NCBI GenBank assembly: GCA_964369165.1
Contig: CAYJFE010000002.1
Span: 6,647-55,277 of the forward strand
Length of the DNA: 48,631 nt
Reading direction: 5' to 3'
From: an uncultured Desulfovibrionaceae bacterium
GTDB taxonomy: Bacteria > Desulfobacterota > Desulfovibrionia > Desulfovibrionales > Desulfovibrionaceae
Below, piece by piece: positions 14,397 through 48,631 of the stretch; position 1 is the stretch's first letter, and every line of letters starts with the position of its first letter. Both the position numbers and the translations under genes were made by a program. The notes under the pieces are model-generated. The model was given only the letters and a program-made list of their open reading frames with translations, had not been told where the DNA came from and did not search any database.

Positions 14397-14481
14397 ACAA
14401 TTACTGTCAAACTTTAAATCTTAGAGATTCAATATTTACTACATGATTTTATTTGGAAAAATTTTTATAAAGGAATAAAAA

Positions 14482-16704: not shown

Positions 16705-16740
16705 AATAATGGCTCTCAAAAAAGTTGAAATTTGTTCTCG

Positions 16741-19234: not shown

Positions 19235-19253
19235 ATATAAAAGGAAAATAGAT

Positions 19254-20603
19254 ATGACAAATGTTTACGATGATGTTTTTGCAAGTGTTGAACTTTCAAA
19301 TCCTCTGCCTAAAAAGGCTTTACCTTCAGAAGAATCTTCTTCTAGAGCCGTTTATCAAGCTTTGCATGACGAACTATTGCTTGACGGCAATGCTAGACAA
19401 AATTTGGCAACTTTCTGTCAAACTTGGCTAGAGCCTGAAATCCATACCCTTATGGACGAATGCATAGATAAAAATATGATAGACAAGGACGAATACCCAC
19501 AAACGGCTGAAATTGAGCAAAGATGCGTGCATATGTTGGCTGATTTATGGCATTCACCAAGCGCAAGCACAACTATAGGTTGTTCAACAACAGGCTCAAG
19601 TGAAGCGGCTATGCTTGGAGGATTAGCATTGAAATGGCGTTGGCGTGAAAAACAAAAAGCTTTAGGTAAAGATTATTCTAAGCCTAATCTTGTTACAGGC
19701 CCCGTGCAGATTTGTTGGCATAAATTCTGTCGTTATTGGGATATAGAACATCGCGAAATTCCTATGGATAAGGGCAGACTTATTATGACAGGTGATGAGG
19801 TTTTGAAATATATTGATGAAAACACTATTGGTGTAGTGCCAACACTTGGTGTTACCTACACAGGGCAGTACGAGCCTGTTGAAGAAGTTGCAAAAGTTTT
19901 AGATGAATACCAAGCAAAGACTGGCATCGATATTCCTATTCATGTCGACGGGGCTTCAGGCGGATTTTTAGCTCCTTTTGTGCACCCTGATTTACTATGG
20001 GATTTTCGCTTGCCACGCGTGAAATCAATAAATGCATCAGGGCATAAATACGGCTTATCTCCTTTAGGTGTGGGTTTTGTAGTGTGGCGTGAAGACGAAG
20101 ATTTGCACAAGGATTTACGTTTTGATGTCAACTATTTAGGTGGAAGTTTGCCCACGATTGCTCTCAATTTTTCTCGCCCTGCTGGCCAAGTCATTGCGCA
20201 ATACTATAATTTCTTGCGTCTTGGCAAAGAAGGCTATAAAAAAGTGCATATGGCGGCTTATAAAGTGGCGGCATATTTAGCAGAAGAAATAAATAAATTG
20301 AATGTCTTTGATATCCTTTACGATGGCAAAGACGGTATTCCAGCTCTATTGTTCACGCTCAAAGAAGAGGATTATAAGTTCAATCTTTATTCACTTTCTG
20401 AATTTATGCGTGCAAGAGGCTGGCTTGTACCTGCGTATTCTATGCCTAATAATTGCACAGATCTTGTTGTCATGCGCATTATGATAAAGCATGGCTTTAG
20501 TATGGATATGGCAAGCCTTATGGTGAAAGATTTAGAAAACGCACTTCTTCTGGTAAGGCATAGCTCAGAGCACTTTAAGGCTGCAAACCATTCAGGAAAG
20601 TAG
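19254..20603 (+). CDS. gadB: Glutamate decarboxylase (PLP-dependent)
   Basis: 449 aa from the ATG at 19254 (RBS AAAGGAAA). PLP-lysine block [22 protein letters not shown] and the overall group-II decarboxylase layout. Confidence 0.85.
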
Positions 20604-29523: not shown

Positions 29524-30285
29524 TTAGAGGATTATTTCAGTGGTTTCAAAATGATAGATATTAGTATCTTTGTAAATGTCATCATCTTGAAAGCAAAAAG
29601 AAAGCGAATAATTTACAAGCTCTTTTCTGTGGCATAAAACAAAGTTTTTTTGCTTGTGTATTGCAAGATGAGAATTGTTTTTTTCTTTTGTGTGTGCAGT
29701 TGCAAAAATACTGCTTTGGTAAAATTCTTTTGCTAAAATAATAGAGGAGGGACTTATGCCAAGACCTGTGCCTAGAGCTTTGAGATAGGCTTCTTTCAAA
29801 GTCCAAATTCTATAAAAAAGCTTTGTTTTTTCTGTGTATGACATATTTATTTGACTTTCAATATATTCTTGCTCTTCTTTATGGAAAAGAAAGTCATAGC
29901 ATTCATTGAAAAGAGAAGTTTTTGTAATTTCTTCAATATCAATGCCGAGCGGATTTCTTTGTGTAATTTCACTTTGTGCTGAGAATATACCACAAGCTCT
30001 ATTGCCTGAATGCGAAAGGTTAAAAGAAAGAGGGAAGTTTGTGCAAAATAATTTGCCTTCTTTGCTTTTTTGTATATTTGCCTTGTGAAGATCAAAGCCG
30101 TAGTCTTCAAAGGCTTTTTGCAAAACTAAGCCAGCACCAAGCGAAAGCTTACGATCTTTAGGGAAAAGATAGCTATCACATTTTTCTTTACGCCATAAGG
30201 GAAGCGCATTATACGAATTTTCATACAATTCTTCATTGTCTAAAGCATCGACGTTAATGATATAAATTTTAGGTAGATGAGGCAT
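29524..30285 (-). CDS. Sfp-type 4'-phosphopantetheinyl transferase
   Basis: 253 aa. PPTase motifs FNLSHSG, GIDIEEI and WTLKEAYLKALGTGL (the W/KEA…K…G block). Confidence 0.85.
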   Translation of the reverse strand: MPHLPKIYIINVDALDNEELYENSYNALPLWRKEKCDSYLFPKDRKLSLGAGLVLQKAFEDYGFDLHKANIQKSKEGKLFCTNFPLSFNLSHSGNRACGIFSAQSEITQRNPLGIDIEEITKTSLFNECYDFLFHKEEQEYIESQINMSYTEKTKLFYRIWTLKEAYLKALGTGLGISPSSIILAKEFYQSSIFATAHTKEKNNSHLAIHKQKNFVLCHRKELVNYSLSFCFQDDDIYKDTNIYHFETTEIIL

Positions 30286-30288: not shown

Positions 30289-31959
30289 TTAGAGTATTTT
30301 GCCCTCTGACATATGTATGATTTTGTCAGCATAAGAATGGTAAGAGTCGTCACGAGAAGCAATAATAATGCTTTTGCCTTGTTTTTTCATATAGGGTATA
30401 ATTTCTAAATAAAAATGCTGGCGAAATTCTTTATCAAAATCAGCTTCAATTTCGTCAAAGAGGTAGATATCTTTATCTTCTAAAAGAGCATACAAAAGGG
30501 CAAGACGCTTTTCTTCACCGCTTGAAAGGGGCATAAATTCAAAATCGTCATTTTCAAGATATTGCACTTTATGCATAAGTTTAACAAGTTTTGCCATTTC
30601 AAGAAAGGAGTGTGAAGAAGCAAGAATATTTGGATGCCTTGAAAAATGCACTTTTGAGGGCACAAAGGCAAAAAGATTTCGCCAATCCTCTAAGGTATAA
30701 GGAGCTTTTTCTGCATCATTATTTTCAAAAATTTTGTAATCGTTGAGAATAAAGCTTCCTTTTTCGGGTAGATAGAGTGTGCTTATAAGATTGAGAAAGG
30801 AACTTTTGCCAGAGCCATTATTGCCATAAAGCATAATAATTTCATTTTTATCTAGTCGAAATTCAGGAATTGAAAGTGAATAGACTTTGTCCTCTTCTTT
30901 ATTTCTGTAGGCAAAATACAAATTTTTTATTAAAAGAGATTTGAAGTTTGTATAGTCTAAATCATCTTTTTCCCATGAGTTTTCCACATATTTTCTTTCA
31001 AATTCTTCAATATCTTTATCAAGTTTTTTATCAAAATTATAAAGAAGGGTGATATTTGTTTCTACCTTAGTAAAGATAGGCACAAGGCTGACAATATTCA
31101 TAAGTGGTGTTATGCAAAATATCACTAAAACAAGTAAATGCGTCAATTCATTTAAAGAAAGTGGCGCTACCCAAGGCACTGCAAAAAGTAAAATACCTAA
31201 GATGGCAAGAGTGTAAGTCGAAAAGAAAGTCATGCCATGCGTGTGCGCGTTTTCTGTTTCTTCACGAAGCAAAGACGATCTTTTAAGGCTTGGGAAAAGC
31301 CAAGTTTGAAAAAGATAGACACTTTGTTTCAGGCTTATTTTTGTATCCATAAAAGCATCTTCAAAGTTTTGAAATTCATTTGAAAAATTTCTTTCTGTTT
31401 CTTTTGACATAAGAGTATAGGCCTTTGCATCTTGCACTATGCGAATATAGATAGTAAAACCTATGCCCATAAGAAGAAAAACTATGCACGCGCCAAGAAG
31501 TGATGTTGCAATCATTTGGGCTATAGCCACAAACATCATAACAGAATTTGAAAAGGCTGAAGTGAGAATACGCGCTACTTCCACCACCATTTCTTGCGAA
31601 TTATGCAAGATAAGCTGGCTGCTTTCTTCTTTTATTTTTGTAAAGTTTTGTAAAGAAAGTCCGCGTAATTTTGAAACAATGCCCATGCGTAATTTCGTGA
31701 CAGCACGTAAAGAGAAAATTGTCATTCTTTGTGTGCAATATTGAAATAAAGCATAGGATAAAAAAAGCGAGATGACAAAAAATAGAAGTACATATAATTC
31801 TATGCCATTGTGCGCTAATTGTTTCAAGCCTAAAAGAATACTTGAAAGAACAGCTCCTTGCGCTAATCCTGAAACAACACAAGCCAAGAGTACGGGCAAT
31901 TTTTGTTTGCCTGCTTCTTCAAAAAGCATAGAAAGAAAATGAGATTGTGGTGTTTTCAT
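30289..31959 (-). CDS. Fused ABC exporter (TMD-NBD), SyrD/PvdE-like cyclic-peptide transporter family
   Basis: 556 aa. N-terminal 6-TM domain. Walker A GNNGSGKSS, signature LSSGEEKRLAL, Walker B IYLFDEIEADFD. The ~550-aa half-transporter architecture is typical of NRPS-associated peptide exporters. Ends 3 nt before the PPTase start. Confidence 0.8.
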   Translation of the reverse strand: MKTPQSHFLSMLFEEAGKQKLPVLLACVVSGLAQGAVLSSILLGLKQLAHNGIELYVLLFFVISLFLSYALFQYCTQRMTIFSLRAVTKLRMGIVSKLRGLSLQNFTKIKEESSQLILHNSQEMVVEVARILTSAFSNSVMMFVAIAQMIATSLLGACIVFLLMGIGFTIYIRIVQDAKAYTLMSKETERNFSNEFQNFEDAFMDTKISLKQSVYLFQTWLFPSLKRSSLLREETENAHTHGMTFFSTYTLAILGILLFAVPWVAPLSLNELTHLLVLVIFCITPLMNIVSLVPIFTKVETNITLLYNFDKKLDKDIEEFERKYVENSWEKDDLDYTNFKSLLIKNLYFAYRNKEEDKVYSLSIPEFRLDKNEIIMLYGNNGSGKSSFLNLISTLYLPEKGSFILNDYKIFENNDAEKAPYTLEDWRNLFAFVPSKVHFSRHPNILASSHSFLEMAKLVKLMHKVQYLENDDFEFMPLSSGEEKRLALLYALLEDKDIYLFDEIEADFDKEFRQHFYLEIIPYMKKQGKSIIIASRDDSYHSYADKIIHMSEGKIL

Positions 31960-32008: not shown

Positions 32009-32839
32009 TTATTTGGCTAAAATGTCAACGCAATTTTTTGTGAAATCTGTGATGATACCTTTTACACCAGCTTCTAGCATAGTTTTTGCCTCTGCCATAT
32101 CATTCACTGTCCATACATTTACATAGATGCCTGCTTCTTCTAAGGCTTTTATTTCTTCATGCAAAAGAAGTTCTCTACTCGGGTGGTAGGCAAGAGCCTT
32201 TATTTCTTTACAGAGTGCTAAAGGATTTTGGGGTCTATTGTCTTCTACTAAAACTCCTCTTGGCAAGGTGGGCATGATTTTTTTTGCTTCATAAAGATAG
32301 ATATGCTGAAAGGAAGAAAGCAAGACACGCTCTGCCATTTCGCATTCTTTAATGCAGTCAATCACGTCCTTTGTTACTCGCTCATGCCCTATAAGAGGGA
32401 GATGATCTTTGATTTCTACATTCACAAACCAATTCAATTCCTTAGTAAGAAGTAGAGCTTCTTTGAGTGTGGGCACTTTGAGATTTTGAAAATTCTCCAC
32501 TCTCTCTTTGTCAAGACTTGCAAGTGTTTGGAAAGGATCAGTTTTTACAAACCATGAACCAGCATCTAAGTGGCGAATTTCTTCTAATGTGAAGTCACAA
32601 ACTTTGTAAGACTCTCTATCTGGGAACAAATCTTCAACATTTGTAGTACGACATAATGTGTCATCATGAATAACTACAAGCTCAAAATCTTTAGTGTAGC
32701 AAACATCTAATTCCCACATTTGCGCACCTAAATTATAGGCAAGATCTGCGGCATAAAGTGTGTTTTCAGGCGCGTGCGCTCTTGCGCCTCTGTGGGCTAC
32801 AGTAAGGGGCTTTGAACAAAGTGAGGGAATAAATGACAT
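32009..32839 (-). CDS. Glycerophosphodiester phosphodiesterase family protein
   Basis: 276 aa. The GDPD catalytic N-terminus (LTVAHRGARAHAPENTLYA…ELDVCYTKDFELVVIHDDTL) has the HR…E…D…H pattern. Confidence 0.75.
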   Translation of the reverse strand: MSFIPSLCSKPLTVAHRGARAHAPENTLYAADLAYNLGAQMWELDVCYTKDFELVVIHDDTLCRTTNVEDLFPDRESYKVCDFTLEEIRHLDAGSWFVKTDPFQTLASLDKERVENFQNLKVPTLKEALLLTKELNWFVNVEIKDHLPLIGHERVTKDVIDCIKECEMAERVLLSSFQHIYLYEAKKIMPTLPRGVLVEDNRPQNPLALCKEIKALAYHPSRELLLHEEIKALEEAGIYVNVWTVNDMAEAKTMLEAGVKGIITDFTKNCVDILAK

Positions 32840-32893: not shown

Positions 32894-35800
32894 CTAGATA
32901 GCATTTAAAGGTTTGTCTGGATAGGTAGACGCAATATCAAGGAATTTTACAAACATAGTCGCAAAGGCTGTGATGGTGTTTCTGTCAATAATTTCAGGAT
33001 TATAGTTGAAATTGAAGTCGTGCAATCCTTCGACAGTTAATGTGAGCGGGCTTCCTGTCATATTTACAGAATATACATTTTCTATATCTTTTGAATCTTC
33101 ATTGAAAGTGGGCAGATTTTCCATAATAAAAAGCACGTCAGACAAGTCATTCTTATAAGGCGTTTGCTCATAAATAGTTGAAGAAGCAATGGCTATATGT
33201 TCTTCTCTTTCATGGTTTTTTTCTTGGAAAAGTTTTGTGCGCTCTTTGAAAGAAAGCTCTGAGGTATATGGAAAACGGCAAGGAATAAGATTTGTAAAAA
33301 ATCCGACGCAAGTTTCAATGCCTTCCACTTCAGCAGGTCTTAATGAATAAATGCTATGGAAGAAAATATCATCATTTCCTGTATATACCTGCAAAATAGT
33401 CGCAAGAGCAGATTGATAAATGGTGCTCATTGTAAGATGGCAATCTTCAGAAAGTTTTTTACAACGCTCAACAATGACATCGTCTATATTGAAATTCTGC
33501 ACTTCTTCAGGATAAGGATCACCTTGATTGTAGGTAAAGTTTCTATTCACGCCATAGATATGCGTTGGCGCATAGACATTTTTAAGCTCATTTTTCCACC
33601 AATCGTGGTGCAAAGGAATGTCTTGTCTTTTGAGCCATTGTGAATAGTCACGCATATCAAAAGTATTTGTGCCAATATCGTCCTTTGAAAGATCGTCGTA
33701 AAAGACTTCTGCGCCCCATCTATCAAAAACAATATGCGTAAAAGTAATAGTCATATCAACTACAGTATCGCTGATTTGATAAAGACCAATATGCAAAAGC
33801 GTATCTTTTGAAATATCCACTATCTTTGCTTTGTGCATAGCTTTTTCATTGTCTATATATTGCCTTTGCTCAACAGTGGCTAAATGGCGTAAGTCTTTGA
33901 CAATAATGGATTCTTTTCTGTCTTTGAGTATAAGAGCGCGGGGCACATTGTCAATAATAGGGCAGACCATGCGCAAATTCTCATGCTTTTGCCACACATT
34001 CTTTGCTCTTGCTAAAAAGGTATCAATATCAAGTTCCTTGAAGCGATAATGCGATTGCTTGATATAGGTCGGCGCAGTGTGCGGATTCATGACTAAATCG
34101 TAATAAGTACGCAATTCTATAGCATTTAACGGACGGATTGATTCTATATCGCCATAAAAATCTAAGGCAGATTCAAGGCTTTTTTGCGAAATGCTTGCAT
34201 CGCCATAGTCTGCGCCAGTTTTTAAAGGCTTTTCAAGTGCAAGGCAATGCTCTAAAAGCTCTTCAATGCTCTTTTTATATTTTTCTAAAAGCTCTTGCTG
34301 CTCCCCATCTGAAAAAATATCAGTATCCATATTGAAGGCGCATTCAAGGCAATTATCTTCGCCAATTATGCAAGTGACAGAAAGTGGCGTTGCCATTGGA
34401 TGATTGTCATCACTGTAGCCATCAAGATCATAAAAAGTATATTGATTCTCGCTGCTTGCTGAATTGACTTGGCCTAAATAATTGAATTCAATATGCGAAG
34501 AAAGAAGGGGTATATTTTGCATTTTCAAATCAGTCAATACACCATAGCCAAGACCTTTATTTGGCACTGAGCGAAGCTTATCTTTCACAGCAAAAAGTGT
34601 TTGACCTATGCTTTCTTGTTTTTCTAAAACAACAGGGAAAAGTGAAGTAAACCAACCCACTGCGCGAGATAAGTCTATATCAAAAAATTCGTCACGCCCG
34701 TGCGATTCAAGATTGATTTGAATTTTATTATGCCCAGAAGGAAGATTACAAATATCAGCATGCACAAGGGCGGCTAGAAGAAAATCTTCCATATTCGCAT
34801 GATAGCTATTGATTCCCTCTAAGAGCATAGAAGAAGTAAGTTTTTGTGAAAACTTGAAACTTTGCGCCTTATAAGTTTTTTTGACTCTTTCTTTTTTTGA
34901 AAAGAACTTGCCTTGCAATTCACTTTCTGGCAAAGTGGCTTGTTGCCAATAGCTTATTTCGGCATCAAAGTTTGTGCTTTCTTGCAATTTTTGCATATAA
35001 TGCCCAAACTGGCTTTCTGGCATAAGATCTTCTTCAGTATTTAAATCGTCTAATAAAATACGCCACGAAATGCCGTCAACAATAAGATGGTGAATTGCTA
35101 GAAGAAGATAACTTTCAGAATTGTCTTTATTTGTGTGATAGCCTGCGATAAAAAGTTTGTTTTCAGCTAAAGAAATTTCGTCAATCAAGCGAGCTTTCAT
35201 TTGCATAATACTTTCATTTTCTTCTGCTGTGTGGAAAATAAAGAGATTATCTTCAGCATCTTGCACTCTTTGTTGCGGTATGCCTTTATTTTCTATGCAA
35301 TTAAAATGCACCCTAAGCATATCGTGTTTTTGCCAAAGTTCATAGCATTTTTCTCTTGCTTCTTCAAAGCTGAGATTTTCTTTTGTAACAATAGCAATTT
35401 GCGCAAATTTTTCAAGCGGACTACTACTGTCATTTATGGCAAGCGCATTATTTTTGAATTGACTCATATGGAAGAAGTGCTTTTGTATGGGGCTTAAAGG
35501 AACATCTTTGAGGGCTTGAGCGTAGAGATTTTTTTCTATAGGTTCTAAAATAAGCGCTAGTGTGGCTATGGTTGCGTATTTAAAGATTTCTTTCACAGTG
35601 CATTTATAGCCTTGCTGTGAAAGGCGAGAAATCGCTCTGATAGCAGTGATAGAATCAGCACCGAGAGCAAAGAGATTGTCGTTCACACTGATATTTTCTT
35701 TGCCCAACAATTGTCCCCAAATTTCAGCAAGAAGTATTTCTTTTTCGCTTGAAGGCGCAACTTTACTTTGATTTATACGCGGCTTTGGAAGGGCAGATAC

Positions 35801-38728
35801 AGAAATTTTTCCATTTAAAGTAATAGGTATAGAGTCAATAGGAGTAAAATGACGAGGAATGCCGTAAGATGGCAGTAAGGTCAAGAGATAATTACGTAAA
35901 TCATTTTCTGAAATACTTGTGCCTTCTTCAAGAATATACCAAGCGGCAAGACATTTATCTTCATTTTCTTGCTCAAAAGGTAGAACAATAGCGTCTTTAA
36001 TGTTAGGATAAGAGATAATAGCGTGAACAACTTCAGATGGTTCAATTCTATTTCCCGAAATCTTCACTTGATCGTCCACTCTGCCGAGGAAGATAAGCTT
36101 ACCGTCTTCATTCCATTTTGCTTTATCGCCAGTCTTGTAGCAATGACCATAGACTGGGTGTTTTATAAAGGCTTTAGCACTTTGTTCGGCGTCAAGGTAA
36201 CCCTGACTTACGCCCATGCCACCAATCCAAATTTCGCCCTCAGTGCCAAAAGGTAGCAGTTGACCTTTAGGGCCTAAAAGAGCTGTGATAACATTATGAA
36301 TAGGTCTACCTACGGGTACATTGCGATTTTCGTGCTCACTCATAAGATACATTGTCGCGCATACAGCAGTTTCAGATGGTCCATAGCCATTATATACCTG
36401 AACGCCATTTCTTATGCAAGGCAAGAGATATTCTAATGAGGCAGCTTCACCAGCTGAAACTAAATAATCAAGATTATAAAGGCTTGGGATAAGATTTTCT
36501 CTACCAAGCAAACGAAGATAGGCAGGCGGCAATATGGCAATTTTTGCATCTGCTTCTTGCAACCATGCGGCAAATCTGTGTACATCATTAATAATATCTT
36601 TGCTGAGAAGCACGGATTTTGCGCAAGCATACCAAGGAGTTAAAACATTCAATACCGCGGCATCAAAGGAAAAGCCAGCAAATTGCAAATAAGCTTTTCC
36701 TTTATGAATTTCAAAGCGCTTGCCATAGTCAACTACAGTATTAAGCATTGCTCTTTGCGTGGTGAAAGAGGCTTTTGGAGTGCCTGTTGAGCCAGAGGTA
36801 AACAGAATATAGGCATTATTATCAATGTCATAGCTTTCTGGTGGCAAAATATCTAGTAAATTAAAGTCTAGGCTTTGCTTTACATAATCTGAAGGGAAAA
36901 TATCTTTCATTTCAAGGCATGGAAAGTTAATGCCTTCAATTTTCTCTTCATTTTCTTCATAATCTATTATAACACAAGCAGGTTTTACACTTTCTAACAT
37001 AGAAATAATGCGCTTATGTGGCAAATCTTTGTCGATGGGAGCATAGATAGCATTCAAGCTTAAAATAGCCGGTAAAGTGAGTGTGCTTTCTTTTGTTCTA
37101 CTTCCAATAACTGCAATAATATCAGATTTTTGTATATTTTTTTCTTGGATTTTTAATGCCATATGCTGAGTAATAAAAGCAAATTCTCTCCAGTTGAGAT
37201 TTTGGACTTTATCATTGCTGTCAGGGTAGACAATAGTGGGTGCATTGGGTTCTTCTTTCGCCATTTTCTGTACAAATAGAGGCAAAGGTAAAAGTCCTTG
37301 ATGGTCAACTTCTCCGCCATGGGCAAAACTTTCAAGGATTTTCTTTTCTTGTTGCCCTATAAGCATAAGATCTTCGAGTGGAATATGCGTGGAAACAGCT
37401 AGAGATTTACACAGTTTCATAAATTCTTCAGCTATACATTCCATACGCGTGGTGGAAAATAAGTCTGTGTTATAATTGAAGTCTATAGTAAAAGCTTCAG
37501 GTGTGTCGATAATTTGAAAAACCATATCATAGCGTGAAACGGATAAATCATTAGAATCTTCAATATATTCAAGATCTAAGCCTTGCATTCTTGCCTCTAT
37601 TTCAATATGAGAAATATAGGTAAAAAGGCAATCAAAAAGAGGTGAGCGAGACATATCTCTTTCAACATCAAGTTCTTTTAAAATGCTCTCAAGAGGAACA
37701 GATTGATGTTTTAAAGCATTTTTTACAGAATTTCCAACACTTGTTATATAAGAAGACAGAGTGGACTTTGGCTTAAGAATATCGCGTATAGGCAACATAT
37801 TGATAAAACAGCCGATAACATTATCTTGCACAGATAGATTTCCAAAAGAGGAGTCCTTAGTTGTAATATTTCTACCCTGTACTGGCGTGCCAACTATAAT
37901 ATCAGTATTGTTAGTTTGCTTGTATAAAATGAGCTTTATAAGCGCCATTAAAAGAGAAAAAGGAGTGACTCCATGCTCGTCAGCCACTTCATACAATGTG
38001 TCAACTGTGTCCGCATCAAGCTCTTTTTTTATGCAATTGCCTTTAAAAGTTTGAGTAATAGGACGCGGATAATCAGTAGGCAAATCAAGAGAGACGAGAG
38101 GGCGTTTGAGATATTCTTTCCACCAGCTAAGTTCTTGTATAAACTCATCACTTTCGCGCCACTTTGCGTAATTGTCAGCAAAAAGGCCAAAGGAGTTATC
38201 ACTTGTTTTTTCAATAACTTGGTCTATCTTTCCATAAGTGTTGAAAATTTCAGCAATAAGAAAAGAGAGTGAAGTGGCATCGCTAATGATATGATGAATA
38301 TTGAAGAGCACAAGCCAATTTTCGCAAGCTTTATCTTTTGTGTCTTCATAAGGCAAGACAGCAACCCGCATCAAGGGGCCTTTTGAAAAATCAAAGTGGA
38401 AAAATTGATTTTCTTTGATATACCGAGCAGTTAGCTCGTCTACATCCTCATTTTCTTGACAAGAAGGTAAAATTTCGACAGAAAAATCCATTGAATCTAA
38501 CACACATTGCTTAGGATTGTCATTTTGAACAACAAAAACTGTGCGCAAAGCATCGTTTTGGGCTATGATAGTTCGAATGGCTATTTCTAGTCCATTGATG
38601 TCTAGACATCCCTTTACTCGGTAAGCGCAAGGTAGATTATAGACTTCGTGGCTGAGTTCCATCTGATCCAAAACCCACATTTTATGCTGAACTGGTGTAA
38701 GCTCGTAGAATTTTTTTCCTGTTTCCAT
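32894..38728 (-). CDS. Non-ribosomal peptide synthetase, terminal module: C - A - T - E - C(terminal)
   Basis: 1944 aa. Approximate domain spans (nt, minus strand):
- C 38728-37410: HHIISDATS.
- A 37350-35760: TSGSTGTPKAS, NGYGPSETAV, YKTGD, GRVDDQVKISGNRIEPSEV, NGKIS.
- T 35730-35520: LGADSI, with Ser present.
- E 35490-34140: PIQKHFF, HHLIVDGISWRIL, ESHGRDEF, FNYLGQV.
- Terminal C-like 34110-32894: active-site region TFTHIVFDRWG. Confidence 0.85.
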   Translation of the reverse strand: METGKKFYELTPVQHKMWVLDQMELSHEVYNLPCAYRVKGCLDINGLEIAIRTIIAQNDALRTVFVVQNDNPKQCVLDSMDFSVEILPSCQENEDVDELTARYIKENQFFHFDFSKGPLMRVAVLPYEDTKDKACENWLVLFNIHHIISDATSLSFLIAEIFNTYGKIDQVIEKTSDNSFGLFADNYAKWRESDEFIQELSWWKEYLKRPLVSLDLPTDYPRPITQTFKGNCIKKELDADTVDTLYEVADEHGVTPFSLLMALIKLILYKQTNNTDIIVGTPVQGRNITTKDSSFGNLSVQDNVIGCFINMLPIRDILKPKSTLSSYITSVGNSVKNALKHQSVPLESILKELDVERDMSRSPLFDCLFTYISHIEIEARMQGLDLEYIEDSNDLSVSRYDMVFQIIDTPEAFTIDFNYNTDLFSTTRMECIAEEFMKLCKSLAVSTHIPLEDLMLIGQQEKKILESFAHGGEVDHQGLLPLPLFVQKMAKEEPNAPTIVYPDSNDKVQNLNWREFAFITQHMALKIQEKNIQKSDIIAVIGSRTKESTLTLPAILSLNAIYAPIDKDLPHKRIISMLESVKPACVIIDYEENEEKIEGINFPCLEMKDIFPSDYVKQSLDFNLLDILPPESYDIDNNAYILFTSGSTGTPKASFTTQRAMLNTVVDYGKRFEIHKGKAYLQFAGFSFDAAVLNVLTPWYACAKSVLLSKDIINDVHRFAAWLQEADAKIAILPPAYLRLLGRENLIPSLYNLDYLVSAGEAASLEYLLPCIRNGVQVYNGYGPSETAVCATMYLMSEHENRNVPVGRPIHNVITALLGPKGQLLPFGTEGEIWIGGMGVSQGYLDAEQSAKAFIKHPVYGHCYKTGDKAKWNEDGKLIFLGRVDDQVKISGNRIEPSEVVHAIISYPNIKDAIVLPFEQENEDKCLAAWYILEEGTSISENDLRNYLLTLLPSYGIPRHFTPIDSIPITLNGKISVSALPKPRINQSKVAPSSEKEILLAEIWGQLLGKENISVNDNLFALGADSITAIRAISRLSQQGYKCTVKEIFKYATIATLALILEPIEKNLYAQALKDVPLSPIQKHFFHMSQFKNNALAINDSSSPLEKFAQIAIVTKENLSFEEAREKCYELWQKHDMLRVHFNCIENKGIPQQRVQDAEDNLFIFHTAEENESIMQMKARLIDEISLAENKLFIAGYHTNKDNSESYLLLAIHHLIVDGISWRILLDDLNTEEDLMPESQFGHYMQKLQESTNFDAEISYWQQATLPESELQGKFFSKKERVKKTYKAQSFKFSQKLTSSMLLEGINSYHANMEDFLLAALVHADICNLPSGHNKIQINLESHGRDEFFDIDLSRAVGWFTSLFPVVLEKQESIGQTLFAVKDKLRSVPNKGLGYGVLTDLKMQNIPLLSSHIEFNYLGQVNSASSENQYTFYDLDGYSDDNHPMATPLSVTCIIGEDNCLECAFNMDTDIFSDGEQQELLEKYKKSIEELLEHCLALEKPLKTGADYGDASISQKSLESALDFYGDIESIRPLNAIELRTYYDLVMNPHTAPTYIKQSHYRFKELDIDTFLARAKNVWQKHENLRMVCPIIDNVPRALILKDRKESIIVKDLRHLATVEQRQYIDNEKAMHKAKIVDISKDTLLHIGLYQISDTVVDMTITFTHIVFDRWGAEVFYDDLSKDDIGTNTFDMRDYSQWLKRQDIPLHHDWWKNELKNVYAPTHIYGVNRNFTYNQGDPYPEEVQNFNIDDVIVERCKKLSEDCHLTMSTIYQSALATILQVYTGNDDIFFHSIYSLRPAEVEGIETCVGFFTNLIPCRFPYTSELSFKERTKLFQEKNHEREEHIAIASSTIYEQTPYKNDLSDVLFIMENLPTFNEDSKDIENVYSVNMTGSPLTLTVEGLHDFNFNYNPEIIDRNTITAFATMFVKFLDIASTYPDKPLNAI

Positions 38729-38734: not shown

Positions 38735-40567
38735 TTAGCTCCTGTCAATATATTCGGCAAGCTCTTGAATTGTATTTTGCTCAAAAAAGTGTTGTAAGGG
38801 GATATTTATTCCAAAAGCATTATAGATAAGCGAGAGAGCCTTTATGCTTCTTAGGCTATCGCCTCCAAAAGAAGTGAAGGAAATTGAAGTGCTTATCTTC
38901 TCACGTCCAAAAAGTTCTTGCCAGATAAGGCAAAGTTTTTCTTCTGTTTCTGACTTTGGTTCTGTGTAGGCAAGGTTAGCATAGAACATAGCATCAGGTT
39001 TTGGCAAAAGACGCTTATTCACCTTGCCACTTGTGGTGTAAGGGATTTTTTCAATAGGGAAAATCATTGAAGGCACGAAAGCAATTGGAAGTAATTTTAG
39101 CAAAATACTTCTTATTTTTTCATTCGCATCTTCACTTGTAACATTGCAATTTTCTTTTAAAACTACATAGGCGATGAGCATTTTTTGCTTATCATTATTT
39201 TCTTCATTACTTGCATTCACTTCAAAGGCGGTAACACTTGCATCTTGAATAAATTCAATATCTTTAATAGCAAATTCAATTTCACCAAATTCAATGCGAA
39301 CGCCATGAATTTTAACTTGATTGTCACGCCTGCCGAGGCATTCAACTGTGCCATTTTCAAGGTAACGACCCATGTCACCAGTTTTATAGACTATGTCATT
39401 TTCTTCATTCGTGAGAGGATTTATAATAAAAGATTTTTTATTTTCTTCTTCGTTGCTAATATAACCATTTGTTTTGTAAGGTGTTCTGATATAGATTTCA
39501 CCAATTTCTAAAGTGTCGCAAAGTCTGTTTTCATCAAGAATAAGTAAAGACGTGTTAGAGATTGGTTTACCAATTGGCAAGAGAGTATTTTCCTCTTCGT
39601 CTAAGTTTTCTGGAACAGAATAAAAAGCTTTAGCCAAAGTTGTTTCAGTAGGGCCATAGATATTCACACACTCAAGCTTTAGAGCTTTTGCGTATTTTCT
39701 AAAATTGAGAATATCTCTTGAATAGAGGGGTTCGCCAGCGATAAGAATATATTCTAATTCAGGCAAAGTGATAGTATTATCGCGTAAAGAATTGGTAAGT
39801 AAGCGCAAAACAGTAGGAATACAGTGCACTAAATTCACACGCATTTTAACCAACCATTCAGCCAAAAGATGAGGAATAGTGCGCTCTTCCTCGCTTGGAA
39901 TGCACAAAGTTCCGCCTATTAACAAAGGCAATAGTGTGTCACGCAAAGAAACGTCAAAAGTGATTGGGGCGAGCCAAGAAGTTCTTATTGAATTTGACAG
40001 TGAAAATTCTTCAACTTCCCAACGCAAGAAATGTGCAAGGCCTTTATGATTGCCTAATACAGCCTTTGGTTTTCCTGATGAGCCAGAAGTGAACATGACA
40101 TAGGCTGGATCGTTTGGACCAACTTGAATGTCAGGTGTGTTTTCAGCTCTTTCATCGTCTATAAATATGCATGATATTGAATAATTTTCAAGCTCAGCAA
40201 GAAGTTCATTCAATCTTTCTTCAGGAGCTTTTTTTGAAATTAGAACTGTCGTACAATTTGTAAGTGTCAGATATTCTTTGATTCTTTTAGCTGGAAACTG
40301 CACATCAAGAGGCAAGAAAGCATTTCCTGATTTTGCTATACCTAAAAGCCCAAGAATATATATTTCATCTGCAAAGCTGTAAATACCTATGATTTCAGAT
40401 TTTTTATCGACCAGTTTTTGTGCTAAAGCATTAGATCTTTCATGCATTTCTTTATAACTCAGAGCTAAGCCCTTTGAATTTTCCATTGCCTTTACGTCAG
40501 GATTTTTTAAGGCACACTCAGAAATATGCTCAAAAAAAGCTTTCTTCTTATCTAAAATTATATTCAT
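38735..40567 (-). CDS. Stand-alone NRPS adenylation-thiolation (A-T) didomain protein
   Basis: 610 aa. A-domain cores FTSGSSGKPKAV, YGPTETT, YKTGDMGRY, GRRDNQVKIHGVRIEFGEIE, SGKVN. C-terminal carrier FGGDSLRSIKAL. RBS AAGAGGA. There is a 6-nt gap to the downstream NRPS. Confidence 0.85.
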   Translation of the reverse strand: MNIILDKKKAFFEHISECALKNPDVKAMENSKGLALSYKEMHERSNALAQKLVDKKSEIIGIYSFADEIYILGLLGIAKSGNAFLPLDVQFPAKRIKEYLTLTNCTTVLISKKAPEERLNELLAELENYSISCIFIDDERAENTPDIQVGPNDPAYVMFTSGSSGKPKAVLGNHKGLAHFLRWEVEEFSLSNSIRTSWLAPITFDVSLRDTLLPLLIGGTLCIPSEEERTIPHLLAEWLVKMRVNLVHCIPTVLRLLTNSLRDNTITLPELEYILIAGEPLYSRDILNFRKYAKALKLECVNIYGPTETTLAKAFYSVPENLDEEENTLLPIGKPISNTSLLILDENRLCDTLEIGEIYIRTPYKTNGYISNEEENKKSFIINPLTNEENDIVYKTGDMGRYLENGTVECLGRRDNQVKIHGVRIEFGEIEFAIKDIEFIQDASVTAFEVNASNEENNDKQKMLIAYVVLKENCNVTSEDANEKIRSILLKLLPIAFVPSMIFPIEKIPYTTSGKVNKRLLPKPDAMFYANLAYTEPKSETEEKLCLIWQELFGREKISTSISFTSFGGDSLRSIKALSLIYNAFGINIPLQHFFEQNTIQELAEYIDRS

Positions 40568-40601: not shown

Positions 40602-43600
40602 CTACCAACCATCGCCGTCATCATCGCTTTGCATAAGCAAATCTTCACGAGTAAGATTGATAATAATTTCTTCTTGCTTAAATGATTCAATAATCTCAGA
40701 AAGTTGCACTTGATTATTTTCCAAAACTTTTGAAGTGAGTTTAACGAAGTCTAACATGAGTTGACTGATAAAATCTTCATCAAAAATTTCAGTGTCGTAC
40801 TCCATAGTAAAGAGTATGTCTTGTTCATCATCAAATTGATATTTCAAATCATAGCGAGCACTTATACTTCTGTCACTCAATACTTGACTTTCAATGTCTG
40901 GCAAATCAAGTGCTAAAGCTTCGTTGTTTTGAAAAATAAGTATAGCATCAAAAAGAGGTTGGCGCCCTTTTTCTACCGCTAGCGCTAAATCAGACACAAT
41001 GCATTCAAAAGGATAGCTTTGATGGGCAAAAGCATCAAGAATATGCTCTTTCACTCCTGCCATATAATTCATAAAGCTCACATTTGAAGCTATTTGCGTG
41101 CGAATTGGCAGCATATTGAGCATAAAACCTAAGGTATTTTCAATTTCTTCAAAATCTCTGCCTGCAACAGGACTTCCTAGTACAATATCCTTTGATTTTG
41201 TCAAGATGTGCATTTGTAAACTAGCAAGCGCGTGGAAAAGCATAAAGGGGCTTGCGTTGAGCTTCTTTGCTAAGTTTCTGATATCTTTTGAAAGTTTTAA
41301 GCCTAAAGCTTGTGAGATTAATGCGCCTTTGCCACTTCTTTGTGAAGGACGTTTTATTCCAATATATTCAAGAGCTTTTGGTAATTCTTCATAGATATTC
41401 ATCCAATATTGCTTCGAGGCATCAAGCTCGTGCATATGCTCTCTTTGCCATTTGGCATATTGCCCATAACTCATAATTTCAATTTCATCTTCATCAACAT
41501 CAAAGCCTTTGATTTTTCTATAGTTATTTTCAATATCTTTCATAAGAATATGAGCAGACCACCCGTCGCCAAGTATGTGATGCAGATTGAAAATTAGATA
41601 ATATTCCTTTGTTTTTTCATGTGCAAAAAGACGAATGTGATAGAGCTCTTGACTAGATAAGTCGAAGATATAGTTCATTTCTTCTTCATATATCTTTTCT
41701 ATAAAATCATCATTGATATAACTTTCTTTAATAAGTGTAAAGATTTTTTGGCTTTCCACTTTTTGTACGGGATGTCCGCCTTGCATATCAAAAGAAGTTC
41801 TGAGGCTTTCATGTTTTAGTATGCTGAGATTTATTGCTTTTTCTAGAGAATCACAATCAAGTTCTCCTATGAGTTTGAAGCCTCCCACCATATTATAAGC
41901 CGCAGAATGTGGATTTTTTTGCTGCCAAATCCACATACTTTCTTGAGCAAAGGATAGTGGATAAGTCTGAGTATTCGAGAGCTTATCCTGTGTATTCTCA
42001 TTTTCTATTTTTGAAATAGCTTCTTTTGAGTTTGCGCTTGAAGCTTGCATTTCTATGAGATGGCTAGCTAGCAAGATTGGCGAAGGTGCAGCAAAGAAAT
42101 CTTTCAAGCTAAGCGGATAATTTAATTTATTTTTAATACGCACAACAACTTGGTTTGCTTTAAGGCTATGGCCGCCTATATGGAAGAAATTATCGTGTTT
42201 TTCAATTGTTTCAATTTGTAAAACTTCTTTCCAGATTTCTATAATTCTATCACTAAGGTCTTGTTCTTCTTCGCTTATTTCTTGTGTTGGAGTATAGTCG
42301 TCTACAAGCTGTTCCCATGTTTGAGAAAGCAATTTCTTTTTATCGGCTTTACCATTTTTAGTAAGTGGAATTGCAGGCACAATTTCAATTTTGCCAGGAA
42401 TCATATAATCTGGTAAGGCTTGCGTCAAATATCTTTGCAAACTTTGCGCAGAAATTTCTTCATTCAGCACTATATAAGCTGCTAATAATTCACCCATATG
42501 CTTGTCTTCGCCACTACCTAAAATTGGCATAGCGACAGCATCCTTAATGCTTGGATGCGAGATAAGCGCATGCTCAACTTCGCCAAGCTCAATTCTAAAA
42601 CCACGAATTTTTACTTGATCGTCCATTCTGCCAAGATACTCTATCATGCCATTTTGGCAAACTTTGCCTAAGTCGCCAGATTTATAGAGTTTGTGTCCTT
42701 CGATTTGTACAAACTTTTTGGCAGTTTCAAGCGGATTATTGAGATAACCTCGGCTCACACCTCCGCCATAAACGCAGATTTCACCAACTTCTCCGCGTGG
42801 AGAAATTTTTCCTTCTTTATCCATAATTATAATGCCCCAAGAAGGTAAAGGACGGCCAATAATGCTTTGACCTTTTTTGATTTCTTCTGAAGCAATTTTT
42901 GCCCAGGTGACGTGCACAGTGGTTTCAGTAATGCCATACATATTGATTATTTCAACATGGCCAAAGCTTTTATGCCATTCAGCTAAGCGCGCAGGACGCA
43001 ATGCTTCACCACCAAAAACAAGATAGCGAAGGCAATTGAAGTCTAAGGATGAGTTTACCATGTAGTCTGATAATTCGTAAAATGCTGTCGGGGTGAGATT
43101 TAATACGCTCACTTTTTCTTCTTCGAGCATTTGTGTGAAAACATCAGGTGCGGCGGCCACATCTTTTGATATAATCAGCAATTTACCACCAAAGAGCAAT
43201 GCTCCATACATTTCCCAAACAGAAAAATCGAAGCAAGGCGAGTGGAACATCGTCCATACATCTTGCGCATCAAATGTGAAGATGAGATTTTGCTGGAAGA
43301 GAAGATTATATACATTTTGATGCTCGATGACCACACCGCGCGGAGTGCCTGTCGAACCTGAAGTATAGATGACATAAGCTGCTGATTCTGCTGTGTTTTT
43401 TATAGAAAGAGCTTTTTTGTTATCGTCTAAATCTTCCATAAGAATAATGCAGAAATCCTCTCTTTTAAGGTCAGCGTTGAGAAGAATTTTATAGAGAAAT
43501 TTTGAATGTGCTTCGTCTGTAATAATTATCTTTGCTTCACTATTTTTAAGAATGTATAAAATTCTATCATCAGGATAGCTTGGATCAATTGGAATATAAG

Positions 43601-46600
43601 CCTTGCCAGCTTTTAGCACACCCATAAAGGAAGCAGGAATATGCCATGAACGATCAAGAAAGGTTGCAACCCATTGATTATCATTATTAATTAGTGTTGA
43701 AGCTTTTGCTACAATAGTATTTGCTATACGATTTGATTCTTGATCAAGCTCTTTATAAGTGATTTCTCGATTTGCATCCTTAATAGCTATATTTTTAGGG
43801 AATTTTTTTGCAATTTGAGCAAATTTTTCATCTAAAGTCATGGGGATAAGAGGCAAATGCTTAGATGATTGCGCCATGATGCTAGATATATCAAGTTTTT
43901 CGTTTTCTAAAAGCACATCAAGAGAGAAAATTTTTGTGCTTTGCTCTTGTTTAGAGGCAAGATAATTAAGAATTATTTCAAAGCGTTGAACAAATTCTTC
44001 AGCTGTCTTGTCGTCAAACAGAGTTTTATTCCATGAAAGCGCAATAGTGCCATCTTCCCTTGCCATACAAACAAGATCGTATTTACCAAAACCTAAGGCC
44101 GTGAGAGGAGTGTTGAGTGTATCAAACTTTGATTTTGTCGTGTCTTCAACAAAAAGTACGTCAAAGAGGGCAGTACGGCTCATGTCATTTTGCGGTTTTA
44201 CGGCAATAACTAGCTGATCAAAAGGTATATTTGCGTGCGAAATTGCTTCAAGTCTTTGCTTTTGTAGATTTAATTCTAATTCACTTAAGCTTGAATCTTG
44301 TGAAATTATACTACGCAGAGGAATAAGCTGTAGCATAGGTCCTAAGGGCAATTTTGCTGTATCGCAGTCAAAACTATCACTTTCTTTATGCTCGATAACT
44401 TCGCCTATAACAATATCATCTTGTAAGGAAAGTCTATGTAAAAAGGCGGCATAGCCAGTGCGAATTTTATCTATACTTAGAGGCGCAATTTTGAAAGAGG
44501 CATAGCCTTGTTCATAGATATGCACAGCTTGTCTGGGATTGTCATAAGGCAGGGTAAGTTTGTCAATTCCTTCAAGTTTTTCCTTCCAATAATGTGCATT
44601 CTCTGTGTTTAGCCAATCTTTTTTCCTTTCTTCTTCGGCTTTTGTGGCAAAGTTTTCAAAGTCAGTGTAGGGAAGAAGCTTGTAGGATTTTTTTGTTTCA
44701 TAATCAATTAACTCTTCGGAATTAATGATTAAATCAAGCAGCTCGTCGCACAAGATATTCAAGGTGCGATAATCTGCTATGCTATGGTGCATACTTAGTG
44801 CTAAGTTTTTCCCGTCTTTTGTAAGTATCACACGCGCAAGAGGGGCTTTATCTAAATCAAAGGGGGCTTGCGCTTTTTTGATAATTTCTTCTCTAGAATT
44901 AACCATAATTATAGGTAACTGCGGAATATTTCCTTTGATCATTGAAGGCATTGCATTATCTGTTTGGCTTGCCTCCATAGAGAGTGAGAAGAGCGGATGG
45001 CGCTGTGCTAAAATATCTATAGCCTTATGAATTTTATTACTTTCTATGGCAAAATCAAGCTCTTTAATAATAGGCATAGTATAATAAGTAGGCGCGTGAC
45101 TATAAAGAACATTTTTTTCAAATCTATCGACAAACCACAAGCGTTCCTGATGGAAGTTTGGCACAAAGATTTCTTCTTGCCTTGGCAAAGAGCCATCAGC
45201 CTGATTGAAAGCTGCAATAAGTTCATTAAACCAAATTTTTACAGTGCTTTCCATGTATAATTCATCGTCATACGCAAGCTTGAGAGCGATATTTTCGCCA
45301 TCTTCACTGACATTAAGCAAGAAATCATATTGCGCGGAAGGTGTGTCGATTTCCTTTGCATCCCAAGCAACTTCGCGGAGTGGAGGCAAAATATCGTTGC
45401 GGCTGTCTTGTACAAGAACAACATCGACCAAACCTCCTCTTTGCACGAGAGGAGAATTCTCTTTGGCAATTGCATTCATAAGCGTATGTGAAGGCACAAG
45501 TTTTTGTGAAGATTCCAATATTGTTTTTTGTGTGTTGCGCACATTTTCAATAAAAGTTTCAATGGCTTGAGCTTCAGCGCTTTCAGAGTCTAGCGTCGTG
45601 TCTGTAAGCTGGAGGCAAAGAGGGAGCACTTCAACAAAAAAGCCCATAAGATTTCCTGTAAGTGGGTGTGTTCTACCCGCATGAGCAAGGCCAAAGCAAA
45701 TGTTTTTATTCGCTATTTTTTCGCTGAGCCACTGTGCCCAAATAGTGCTGATTACAGCAAAAATTGTTGAATTTGCTTTTTCTGCTATGAGGGCTAACTT
45801 TTTTATACCTTCTTGTGAAAGGCTAGCGTGAAGATTTTTTCCTGTAAATTTGGCTTGACTTGGTCTTTCAAAATCAAGCGGAAGTGTGCATCTTTGCGCT
45901 TGCTTTAATCTTTGGATTGTCCAGTCTATATGGTCAGTATTACTTACATTTTCTAAGGACCAAGCGGCATAATCTCTAAAGCGTATACGTGGTGCAGGTG
46001 AGAGAGCTTTGTCGTGGTATATCGCAATAAGTTCTTGAATTAATATGCCAAATGACCAAACATCGCACACTGAATGGTGTATAGAAATAATCAGCCAATC
46101 TTTTGCATTTTCTTCACCATTATTTCTAAAGATTTTTGCTCTCAAAAGTGGAGCTTTTGATAAATCAAAGGCTTGAGCAACAAAAATTTCTGCATCGCGC
46201 TCAGGATTATCGCTCATGACTCTTTCAAGTGAAAGAGGAGGATTTTCTTCAATATATTGACGAGCTTGCCCATCTTCATCAACAAAGGCTGTGCGCAAAA
46301 CATCATGTCTTTGCATAATAACTTTCAATGCATAGAGAAGTTTTTTCTCGTCAAAATTTTCTGCAATAAAGGCGAGGCCAATATTATATACGCATAAACC
46401 AGGTTGGATTTGATCATGCAACCAAAGCCTTGTTTGCGGTGAACTTGCGGCGTAATTTTTTGCTTCTGCTAGAAGTGGAATGGCAAAGGCACTTGCCTTC
46501 GTTTGTGAGGCACTATAAGACTTTTTTCCAGTGCTTCCTCCATTCGCATCATTCATTGGAGGCGTTGGATCTTTATCAAACCAGCCATCATCAGCCATGG

Positions 46601-48631
46601 CTTTCACACCTTTTTCAATAGCAGAGATGATTTTTTCAATATCATTATCTGTGTGCTCAGTTGACAAGAAGCAGTTACGCCCTTCCCAAACAAAGATACC
46701 GGCTTTGAGTAGGTGGAAGTTCAAAATTTCAGAATTTTCCCTGAAATCAAAACGGAAGAGTGAGGAAAAATATTCAGTTTTAATAGGTGCTTTATAGCGT
46801 GCAAAAATTTCATCTAAGCGCTGACACATTTTCTTCGTTTTTTCAGCAAGCTCTTTTTGCAAAGCGCCATTATCATCAATAATACGCTTCAAAACAGCTT
46901 CTGCGGCAATCATTGATAGAGGGTGCTGGCTAAAAGTTCCTGCTACAAAGGCTGTGTGCGCAGTAGGGAGTGAAGTGTCGTCATAATTCCATTTGCCGCC
47001 ATCAACAGCATCCATAAATCTATTTTTGCCTGCAACCGCACCTACAGGAATGCACGCGCCTAAAACCTTGCCATAAGTGACAATATCCGCTTCTATTCCC
47101 CATAATTCTTGCATTCCTCCAGGGCTCATGCGAAGACCTGTGATCATTTCGTCAAATATAAGAGCAATATCGGTAGACTTTGTAATATCACGTAATTCTT
47201 TGACAAATTTATAAGGTTGTAAGGCAGGATTTCTACTTTGTATAGGTTCTACTAAGACTGCGGCAAGTGAATCTGCATTATTTTTGATAAATTCCAAAGC
47301 CTTAGGATCACCGTAGCGAAGTACGATAGTGTCTTCGACCATGCCTTGTGTTGTGCCATCAGTTATTGGAAGTGTGGTGTAGCCTTGATTATCAGCATTT
47401 GCCCAGCCGCTTGCAAGAACAGCATCAAAAGAACCGTGGAAAGAATTTGCAAAGACGACAATCTTTTGCTTTTTCAACACAGAACGTGCAAGGCGAACCG
47501 CTACCATAACGGCTTCAGTTCCTGAAGAGAAGAAGGCTACCCTATCAGTTTTTGTGAGCGAGCAAAACATTTCTGCCACTCTACCATTTACTTCGTGGTG
47601 AGGTCCAAGTCCAAAGCCGTCATTCAATTCTTTTTTAATGGCATCGCTTACAAAAGCAGGGGCATGGCCAAAAAGACCTGCGCCAAAAGAGCCTGTAATA
47701 TCGACATATTCTCTGCCGTCAATATCCCAAACGTGCGCGCCTTGTGATTTGGTGACAACCAATGGATAGATAAGATTTTTCCATTCAGGTTTAAATCCAA
47801 TCATAGAGCGTGGACCAGCTAAATGCTTGCGATCACGAATGGCTAATTTCTTTGAATTAGGGCTAAGAGCAGTCCATTCCTTTGTAAGCTTTTCGATATG
47901 CGCGAATTGCTTTTGTGTGAAGTTGCTTCTTGAGGTTAAATCTTTAAATAAGCCTTTAACCTCAGTTTTCGCAACTTTTGTTTCTTGAATAGGAGTTTTT
48001 TGAGCTATTGCTATGCTATCAGTTTTTTTTTTTACTTCGCCTTCTTGCAAAGGTTGCGCATTTTGTGAAAGCATAGAAAGCTGTTGAGCAAAAATGTTTT
48101 GCATGGCTTCTACTTGTTTGATAAGAACATTTTCAACAGCAGAACTTGCTACTGCTTGGCTTGCAGGTTGAGTTTGTGTTTCATATGCATATACAGGAGC
48201 TTGCGCACTTTCTACAGGCGCACTGACAACTTGTTCTGTCACTACTTCTTCTGTAATATAGGCTTCATCGCCAAGGCTTTGCTCTGCCATAAAAGTAGCA
48301 AGTTTTCTTGGAGTATCAAGTGGTTGGAAGAAATCATTCACTTCTGGCGCAAAACCAAATTCAAGATTTAATCCTTGTGTTACTTGCACTAATACAAGAG
48401 AATCAAGTCCGAGTTTGAACCAAGAATCGTCTTGTAACTCATTTTGCACATCTGCGCCTATAATCTGAGTCAAGAGAGAAAGCACACTTGCTTCAAGTTC
48501 TTGTTTTTTTGGATTTTCTTTTCTTACAGTAGAAACAATTTTTTGCGTATTTTGCGCTACTGGAGCTTGCATTACAGGCTCTTGAATTGTATGTGCCACT
48601 GTGTTTTGTGTTTGTGTGCTCACATTTGTTT
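40602..48631 (-). CDS. Hybrid NRPS megasynthase, 5'-partial (runs off the window): …ACP - class-III aminotransferase (AMT) - C - C - A - T - C
   Basis: More than 2673 aa. The frame is open to the window edge; the track start at 48623 is only an in-frame GTG. Approximate domain spans (nt):
- ACP 48500-48300: LGLDSL.
- AMT 47880-46580: GSA-aminomutase-like, PLP-lysine TYGKVLG.
- C 46480-45175: HHSVCDVWS.
- Second C-like 45175-43855: MHHSIADYR.
- A 43825-42325: [53 protein letters not shown].
- T 42280-42070: GGHSL.
- C 41980-40602: HHILGDGWS.
The protein ends …DDDGDGW. Confidence 0.85.
   Translation of the reverse strand, partial: [2675 protein letters not shown]

Follow-up and report, generated by a model that had tools for sequence, protein, structure and literature searches.

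In this work we have analysed a 48,631-nucleotide stretch of DNA from an uncultured Desulfovibrionaceae bacterium (contig CAYJFE010000002.1), referred to here as the window, and specifically the long gene at its right-hand edge, which encodes a hybrid of polyketide synthase (PKS) and nonribosomal peptide synthetase (NRPS). All coordinates are window positions; the synthetase genes lie on the minus strand, so that their 5' side has the higher numbers. The minus-strand frame read from 48629 has no stop for 2,675 codons, down to a TAA/TGA stop at 40602, and the original prediction, made from the letters alone, had rightly described it as open to the last base and had concluded that the megasynthase is truncated at the window edge. 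Yet the open frame extends just 2 visible codons (ACA AAT) past an in-frame GTG at 48623, and the exact 2656-aa (amino acid) product of another in-frame start, the ATG at 48570-48572 (minus strand; MQAPVAQNTQK...), which has 19 visible codons before it, is recorded for the source contig of 63,392 bp (P0132, found by exact-sequence look-up). The domain order of this product is ACP-AMT-C-C*-A-T-C, that is, an acyl carrier protein, an aminotransferase, a condensation domain, a divergent condensation-like domain, adenylation and thiolation domains and a last condensation domain; the Pfam families found in the long product are PP-binding, Aminotran_3, three Condensation stretches, AMP-binding and a second PP-binding. 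Since the start on record is internal to the window, and subunits of this family are commonly split at the linker before the ACP, a truncated single open reading frame (ORF) is not supported. We consider it probable that the gene encodes a complete 2656-aa subunit which starts inside the window, at the ATG at 48572 or possibly at the GTG at 48623, and which is the second in a MycA/iturin-type line for beta-amino fatty acids, with a loading subunit upstream.

The first folded unit is indeed an ACP, as had been proposed. It lies at 48291-48485 (minus strand), with the phosphopantetheine serine, Ser58 of GLDSL, at 48399-48401, and when the first 130 residues were scanned alone it scored 38.6 bits against PF00550 (cut-off 20.8) over residues 30-94 counted from the ATG at 48572. 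The linker which joins it to the AMT (47940-48290, minus strand) carries a helical motif, AMQNIFAQQL (48078-48107), that is conserved in the metagenome locus L005 and in other homologues. The AMT itself occupies 46590-47939 (minus strand), with the Pfam core at 46785-47765 and GSFGAG at 47676-47693, and its match to PF00202 (E 1.5e-48; 165.9 bits, cut-off 30.5) bears out the class-III assignment made earlier. When all PDB sequences were searched, the best match of the AMT region was the AMT domain of MycA (6KFM/6KFR/6KFU; E 1.8e-121, 409 bits), aligned over residues 8-457 of the 460 submitted, which agrees with the iturin-type ACP-AMT pair that had been suggested. The Schiff-base lysine of this pyridoxal phosphate (PLP) enzyme, Lys502 in TYGKVLG (47067-47069), aligns with the lysine of TYGKIIG in MycA, so that the PLP-binding residue is conserved as well. 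The next-best solved relative, the glutamate-1-semialdehyde 2,1-aminomutase HemL, shares the class-III PLP fold (E about 1e-49 to 1e-43), but it reached 170 bits as against 409 for MycA and is free-standing, without a carrier protein or a condensation domain, whereas here the ACP with its GLDSL is directly N-terminal of the AMT and a PF00668 C domain (HHSVCD) directly C-terminal. By its fold, closest relative, lysine and neighbours the domain appears to be a MycA-type aminotransferase embedded in a PKS/NRPS, and on the strength of homology its predicted activity is the transamination of a beta-ketoacyl-S-ACP.

MycA and ItuA, the A subunits of the mycosubtilin and iturin synthetases of Bacillus, have the same order of carrier protein, class-III AMT, C, A and T, and the likeness to MycA runs across the whole domain of the crystal-structure sequence with the PLP lysine kept. 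In the mechanism described for iturin synthetase, an acyl ligase, an ACP, a ketosynthase (KS) and a second ACP act before the transamination (PMC11751314). The conversion proposed there, of beta-ketoacyl-S-ACP to beta-aminoacyl-S-ACP followed by condensation with the first amino acid (PMC11751314), is the one that we propose here, and we modelled the steps up to the beta-aminoacyl-S-ACP on that scheme. A subunit encoded beyond 48631, most likely with the order FAAL-ACP-KS, where FAAL is a fatty-acyl-AMP ligase, and with or without an acyltransferase (AT), would activate a fatty acid and condense it with malonate on the ACP at 48291-48485. The PLP aminotransferase would then use Lys502 to turn the resulting beta-ketoacyl-S-ACP into beta-aminoacyl-S-ACP, and the following C domain would hand the beta-aminoacyl chain to a first, probably Thr-like, amino acid. 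The two NRPS proteins encoded downstream, a stand-alone A-T protein and a C-A-T-E-C protein (E, epimerisation domain), would add two further residues, and the terminal C domain would release the product. We place the supply of the acyl chain upstream because the ACP-AMT pair needs a beta-ketoacyl thioester and no window gene supplies one: KS, AT and FAAL are not encoded anywhere in the 27-kb co-directional block that fills 21.8-48.6 kb of the window.

How, then, does the window edge itself read? The minus-strand sequence at the edge is AAACAAATGTGAGCACAC..., which in the frame of the long gene gives ACA AAT GTG AGC; the codon that straddles the edge in this frame is NAA, and a TAA is possible one base past the window. 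Inside the GTG at 48623 the further in-frame starts are a GTG at 48599 and then the ATG at 48572, and the look-up returned no record for the source contig of the products from either GTG. The whole stretch 5' of the recorded start (48573-48631, minus strand) translates in frame as TNVSTQTQNTVAHTIQEPV and, besides GTG 48623-48621 and GTG 48599, holds an out-of-frame TGA at 48622-48620: the second frame at the edge reads AAA CAA ATG TGA, and this TGA overlaps the GTG as GTGA. At 48579-48583 (minus strand), 6 nt upstream of the ATG, there is an AAGAG, a weak match to a Shine-Dalgarno site. Other window genes have GGAG, AGGAG or GAGG at a similar spacing, so the organism does use sites of this type; most of them are stronger than the AAGAG, which resembles the weaker ones among them. 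The original prediction had named a genuine start with a ribosome-binding site close to the edge as the finding that would speak against it, and an ATG with a weak AAGAG comes near to this, the start being a gene call.

Between the out-of-frame TGA and the ATG (48573-48619, 47 nt) the coding strand is 72% A+C, compared with 52 +/- 7.5% in the three NRPS genes, where just 0.26% of equally long windows reach that value, and in view of this outlier part of the T/Q/N-rich, linker-like translation before the ATG may be translated spacer. Codon usage does not discriminate, the log-odds of the 19 codons before the ATG being 1.97 and the gene mean 1.96 +/- 2.02. The 46 residues before the first ACP helix contain 43% Q, T, A and P, as against 22% in the whole protein. 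The linker character that had been described for the N-terminus is real, but the statement that no natural protein start is found there was not confirmed, since the product from the ATG at 48572 is on record. Counted from this ATG, the ACP serine is residue 58, and the aligned serine falls at residues 30-62 in 34 of 48 homologues. A word-indexed homologue search, with matches of at most 1,222 aa, returned shorter proteins of the window itself but missed the 2656-aa protein, and its sample over-represents split proteins; an exhaustive search, run without word indexing, corrected this bias. In the last 1 kb of the window a scan of the coding strand found neither a promoter-like nor a terminator-like site, which fits co-transcription with an upstream gene.

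The second frame at the edge raises the question whether a once-fused gene has been broken there by a frameshift or nonsense change, either a real mutation (a pseudogene or a recent split) or an assembly error. AAA CAA ATG TGA AGC... together with a second open frame is the pattern that a 1-nt indel in a linker would leave, one base added after the ATG would join ...KQM to STQTQNT..., the A/C-rich stretch CACACAAACACAAAACACA is of low complexity and error-prone, and the closest relatives are fused. That an upstream gene occupies the second frame is, however, an assumption; divisions at this domain boundary and at its neighbours are frequent in the family, which evidently tolerates them; and the 8 kb ORF on the downstream side is intact, as are the two NRPS genes after it, with all catalytic motifs present, which argues against decay. 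We regard such a break as quite unlikely.

To place the arrangement among its relatives we made use of the exhaustive search, which covered 1.84 billion representatives, ranked the protein itself first and gave 149 best family representatives that we classified. Closest to the ACP-AMT part are L005 (57% identity), P0376 (51%) and P0379-P0384 (43-50%). The eight closest non-self representatives, 43-51% identical, have 1,310-1,590 extra N-terminal residues in one polypeptide; P0376, the closest and the only one of the eight that was domain-scanned, is a FAAL-ACP-KS-AT-ACP-AMT protein of 2267 aa. P0379-P0384 (4,350-4,863 aa) have about 1,300-1,570 extra N-terminal and about 2,400-2,650 extra C-terminal residues and look fully fused, P0380-P0384 being placed by length and match position only. 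Extensions of KS-AT or FAAL-ACP-KS-AT size occur at the N-terminus of 83 of the 149. A further 39 (26%) start at ACP-AMT or at the AMT, and these include NRPS-fused proteins of 2,200-3,800 aa like that of the window. Other subunit boundaries also exist: the cut lies after the AMT in P0376, in P0378 and in L005, whose NRPS has a gene of its own (1969 aa), and between ACP and AMT in P0385 and P0386. P0376 and L005 end after the AMT and P0379-P0384 appear undivided, whereas the subunit encoded in the window is cut off ahead of the ACP and continues without a break past the AMT.

Where the DNA upstream of such early-starting subunits could be read, it was consistent. A KS gene lies upstream in all four relatives which start at or just before the ACP and have readable upstream DNA (L001, L002, L007 and L008), and in three of them (L002, L001 and L008) 68-110 nt separate it from the AMT gene. 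In L002 a FAAL-ACP-KS-AT gene is followed after a gap of 68 nt by ACP-AMT-C; in L001 FAAL-ACP-KS is followed by AT-ACP-AMT, so that the AMT protein begins with the AT; in L008 ACP-KS-AT precedes ACP-AMT; and in L007 the order is KS, AT, a 436-aa protein and then ACP-AMT, with the KS three genes upstream. As far as the sequences tell, a split at the AT/ACP linker is an ordinary arrangement in this enzyme family, and in the window the FAAL/KS part is most likely a separate gene just beyond 48631. The expectation that acyl-loading and KS functions precede the ACP-AMT pair is thus supported by the architecture of the relatives, although not in the form in which it was made, as an in-frame part of the same ORF. 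The puwainaphycin pathway, in which FAAL, ACP and PKS are separate ORFs (PMC4219810), shows that fusion of the loading part is not required. More generally, domain linkers are places at which this family is freely divided into subunits, a point to bear in mind when the order of an assembly line is predicted from gene order.

Could the line do without a dedicated upstream PKS altogether? An ACP-AMT-first synthetase might begin it, with the beta-ketoacyl chain coming from primary fatty-acid synthesis or from enzymes encoded elsewhere. The 27 kb of co-directional genes without KS, AT or FAAL would fit this, and so would P0392, an ACP-AMT-NRPS protein whose gene has a hairpin, not coding sequence, in the 38 nt between its start and the contig end. 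Against it stand the upstream KS genes in all four readable relatives, the KS-containing extensions expected from the size of 83 of the 149 representatives, and the gene's lack of a promoter-like site before it; we hold this explanation to be very improbable.

Several points weigh against a separate loading subunit and a start inside the window. The sequence read ends at 48631, and the content beyond it we infer; the start on record was assigned by gene calling and not by N-terminal mapping; and the Shine-Dalgarno-like site before it is weak. The out-of-frame TGA is, by our own estimate, expected by chance in about one of every 5-7 three-codon stretches and is weak alone. The eight closest relatives hold the part of FAAL-ACP-KS-AT size in the same polypeptide. 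In fused relatives the AT-to-ACP linker consists of 35-45 low-complexity residues, and the 44 residues before ACP helix 1 match it in length and low complexity, which would bring an AT-domain boundary to the very edge of the window; a recent frameshift, nonsense change or assembly error in a once-fused gene would look the same. Finally, were 48631 the contig end, gene calling might have settled on an internal ATG; the gene of P0392, for comparison, lies 38 nt from the end of its contig.

The model of the original prediction is a single continuous MycA-like ORF (FAAL-ACP-KS-AT-ACP-AMT-NRPS) cut by the window; the ATG call would then be an artefact, for instance of a contig end at 48631. In its favour are the frame that is open to the edge, the fusion seen in the eight closest relatives (P0376; P0379-P0384), a low-complexity leader as long as the relatives' linker, a relative from Aliigemmobacter aestuarii that is a single ORF of 3,386 aa (36% identical), and the fact that contigs of metagenome-assembled genomes (MAGs) frequently break within megasynthase genes, the P0392 gene lying 38 nt from a contig end. 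However, it is the Met-start product that is recorded, not a partial one or the longest product from a GTG; 14,761 bp of the source contig lie outside the window; and 26% of the best 149 representatives begin at the same point. The two window ends precede called starts by 26 and 59 nt, a faint hint that gene calls, and not a contig end, determined the limits of the window. A single cut ORF is in our opinion unlikely. The locus illustrates that an ORF open to the edge of a window need not be truncated: here a start 60 nt inside is favoured by the record, the Shine-Dalgarno-like site and the habits of the family, and the apparent truncation comes largely from the place at which the window happens to end.

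The remainder of the 2656-aa gene (40602-46502, minus strand) encodes C at 45207-46502, C* at 43815-45188, A at 42348-43820, T at 42057-42251 and the last C at 40665-41972, with the C-domain motifs HHSVCD, HHSIAD and HHILGD, and is collinear with the separate 1969-aa NRPS of L005 at 37% identity. The specificity code of its A domain, DFWTVGMVHK, is Thr-like; the codes were read against a GrsA reference and are approximate only. Next comes the stand-alone A-T protein of 610 aa (38735-40567, minus strand; P0133, an exact record), whose best non-self homologue is 43% identical and which probably completes the module opened by the final C of the 2656-aa protein. It is followed by the C-A-T-E-C protein of 1944 aa (32894-38728, minus strand), in which E matches TIGR01720 and the terminal C has THIVFD in place of HHxxxD. 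Read collinearly, the three A domains of the window would give a beta-amino fatty acyl tripeptide with the third residue epimerised. The window contains neither a thioesterase (PF00975) nor a malonyl-CoA transacylase/AT (PF00698), and the line ends in a C domain. Because no thioesterase is encoded in the window, we propose that this C domain may release the product.

Three observations on these domains deserve separate mention. The tandem of C and the divergent C* with HHSIAD (43815-46502, minus strand) stands between the AMT and the first A with no A-T pair between the two, and it is kept in the NRPS of L005 (1762-~4300; 37% identical) and in P0379. After the terminal C of the 2656-aa protein there is a short acidic tail that ends in Trp, DDDGDGW (40602-40640, minus strand), its counterparts being ADDDEW in L005 (7549-7671), FADDGW in P0379 and DPEGW in P0386. 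Such a tail may serve as a motif for docking to the subunit that follows. The C with THIVFD instead of HHxxxD, with which the 1944-aa protein ends, occupies 32897-34261 (minus strand).

The likeness to known systems has clear limits. In MycA and ItuA the acyl ligase, the first ACP and the KS are in the same polypeptide, whereas the window protein is recorded from 29 residues before its ACP; it also has the extra divergent C-like domain between the first C and the A, and its host is an uncultured low-GC (guanine plus cytosine) bacterium. Iturins contain seven amino acids, as against three A domains in the window, and, unlike the iturin family, the window has no thioesterase or malonyl-CoA transacylase gene and its line ends in C. 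The puwainaphycin synthetase of Cylindrospermum (PuwC/PuwD/PuwB/PuwE) is also a beta-amino lipopeptide line, with FAAL, PKS, embedded aminotransferase and NRPS modules. Unlike in the window gene, however, KS-AT-ACP-AMT and an oxygenase remain together in PuwE as a single protein, none of the oxygenase or the methylating PKS module is seen in the window, the peptide part is much longer and release is by a thioesterase. L005 and P0379 share with the window protein the C-C*-A-T-C continuation, the A motif FDFS(V/T)WE and the acidic tail ending in Trp, but L005, P0376, P0378 and P0379, whose DNA or protein was read, look high-GC, unlike the window.

The synthetase is an orphan that belongs to a known kind of hybrid PKS-NRPS. 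No synthetase protein more than 57% identical was present among about 15 billion sequences; the best non-self relatives are 41-57% identical, and the synthetase proteins that were looked up are singletons at 90% identity. Two scans of genome contigs found no copy of the locus, the sole match being the 36% relative of Aliigemmobacter aestuarii, and one metagenome scan gave L005 (OBXA01000669.1) as the best metagenome relative, on a contig that ends 88 nt before the match. A search for a syntenic cluster with the 610-aa A-T protein gave no match above 43%, and its best locus, L009 from a Colwellia MAG, was non-syntenic. CobQ of the window is 82-84% identical to that of NCBI MAGs (e.g. GCA_964371865.1) and 62-66% identical to that of MAGs labelled Rikenellaceae, and no close homologue of the 610-aa protein was found in the sister genomes with the 82-84% CobQ, GCA_964371865.1 among them. 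We tentatively suggest that the window carries most of an orphan pathway for a short lipopeptide, composed of a beta-amino fatty acid and three amino acids, in a low-GC and probably anaerobic uncultured host, which would be a new chemotype in a lineage not known for iturin-like chemistry. This suggestion takes in three unusual features: the break at the AT/ACP boundary, the conserved C-C* after the AMT, and a terminal C, not a thioesterase, for release. The locus would extend the MycA-type chemistry of beta-amino fatty acids to an uncultured low-GC bacterium, and its product, if isolated, would probably be a new small lipopeptide.

After the 1944-aa gene the same strand encodes a GDPD-family protein, an ATP-binding cassette (ABC) transporter (30289-31959; PF00005), an Sfp-type phosphopantetheinyl transferase (29524-30285; PF01648 and PF22624) and further transport genes, the transporter and the transferase being co-directional with the synthetase genes. 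The GDPD gene (32009-32839, minus strand) is 65% identical to the GDPD of locus L004 (2296-3138), beside cbiK in GCA_964371865.1 (CobQ 84%); either the gene order differs between the two genomes or the GDPDs are paralogues. An asparagine-synthase-like gene (PF00733) is found beside the AMT synthetases of three unrelated relatives, L001 (13154-15070), L005 (7731-9650) and L009 (8103-9965); the window has no PF00733 gene and has the stand-alone A-T gene in the corresponding place. At 22681-25239 (minus strand) lies a gene for an 852-aa product whose C-terminal half is a major facilitator superfamily (MFS) transporter (PF07690, residues 493-776), the first ~490 residues having no Pfam match, and after it, on the synthetase strand, come two ABC_sub_bind proteins and a formyltransferase-like protein.

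The other end of the window (27-16719) is taken up by a large cbi-type (cobalt-early, anaerobic-type) set for cobalamin biosynthesis: cbiK, cobU, cobS, cobC, cbiL, cbiC, cbiD, cbiET, a fused cbiF-G-H, cobB, cbiB, cobD, cobT, a eutT-like gene and cobQ. Neither a cobalamin riboswitch nor any other Rfam family reached its gathering score across the window, which shows only 26 nt of the sequence before cbiK. An acid-resistance pair at 17756-20603 (plus strand), placed between the cobalamin genes and the synthetase block, consists of a gadC-type glutamine/GABA (gamma-aminobutyrate) antiporter (TIGR03813, 741 bits) and the glutamate decarboxylase gadB (TIGR01788, 632 bits).

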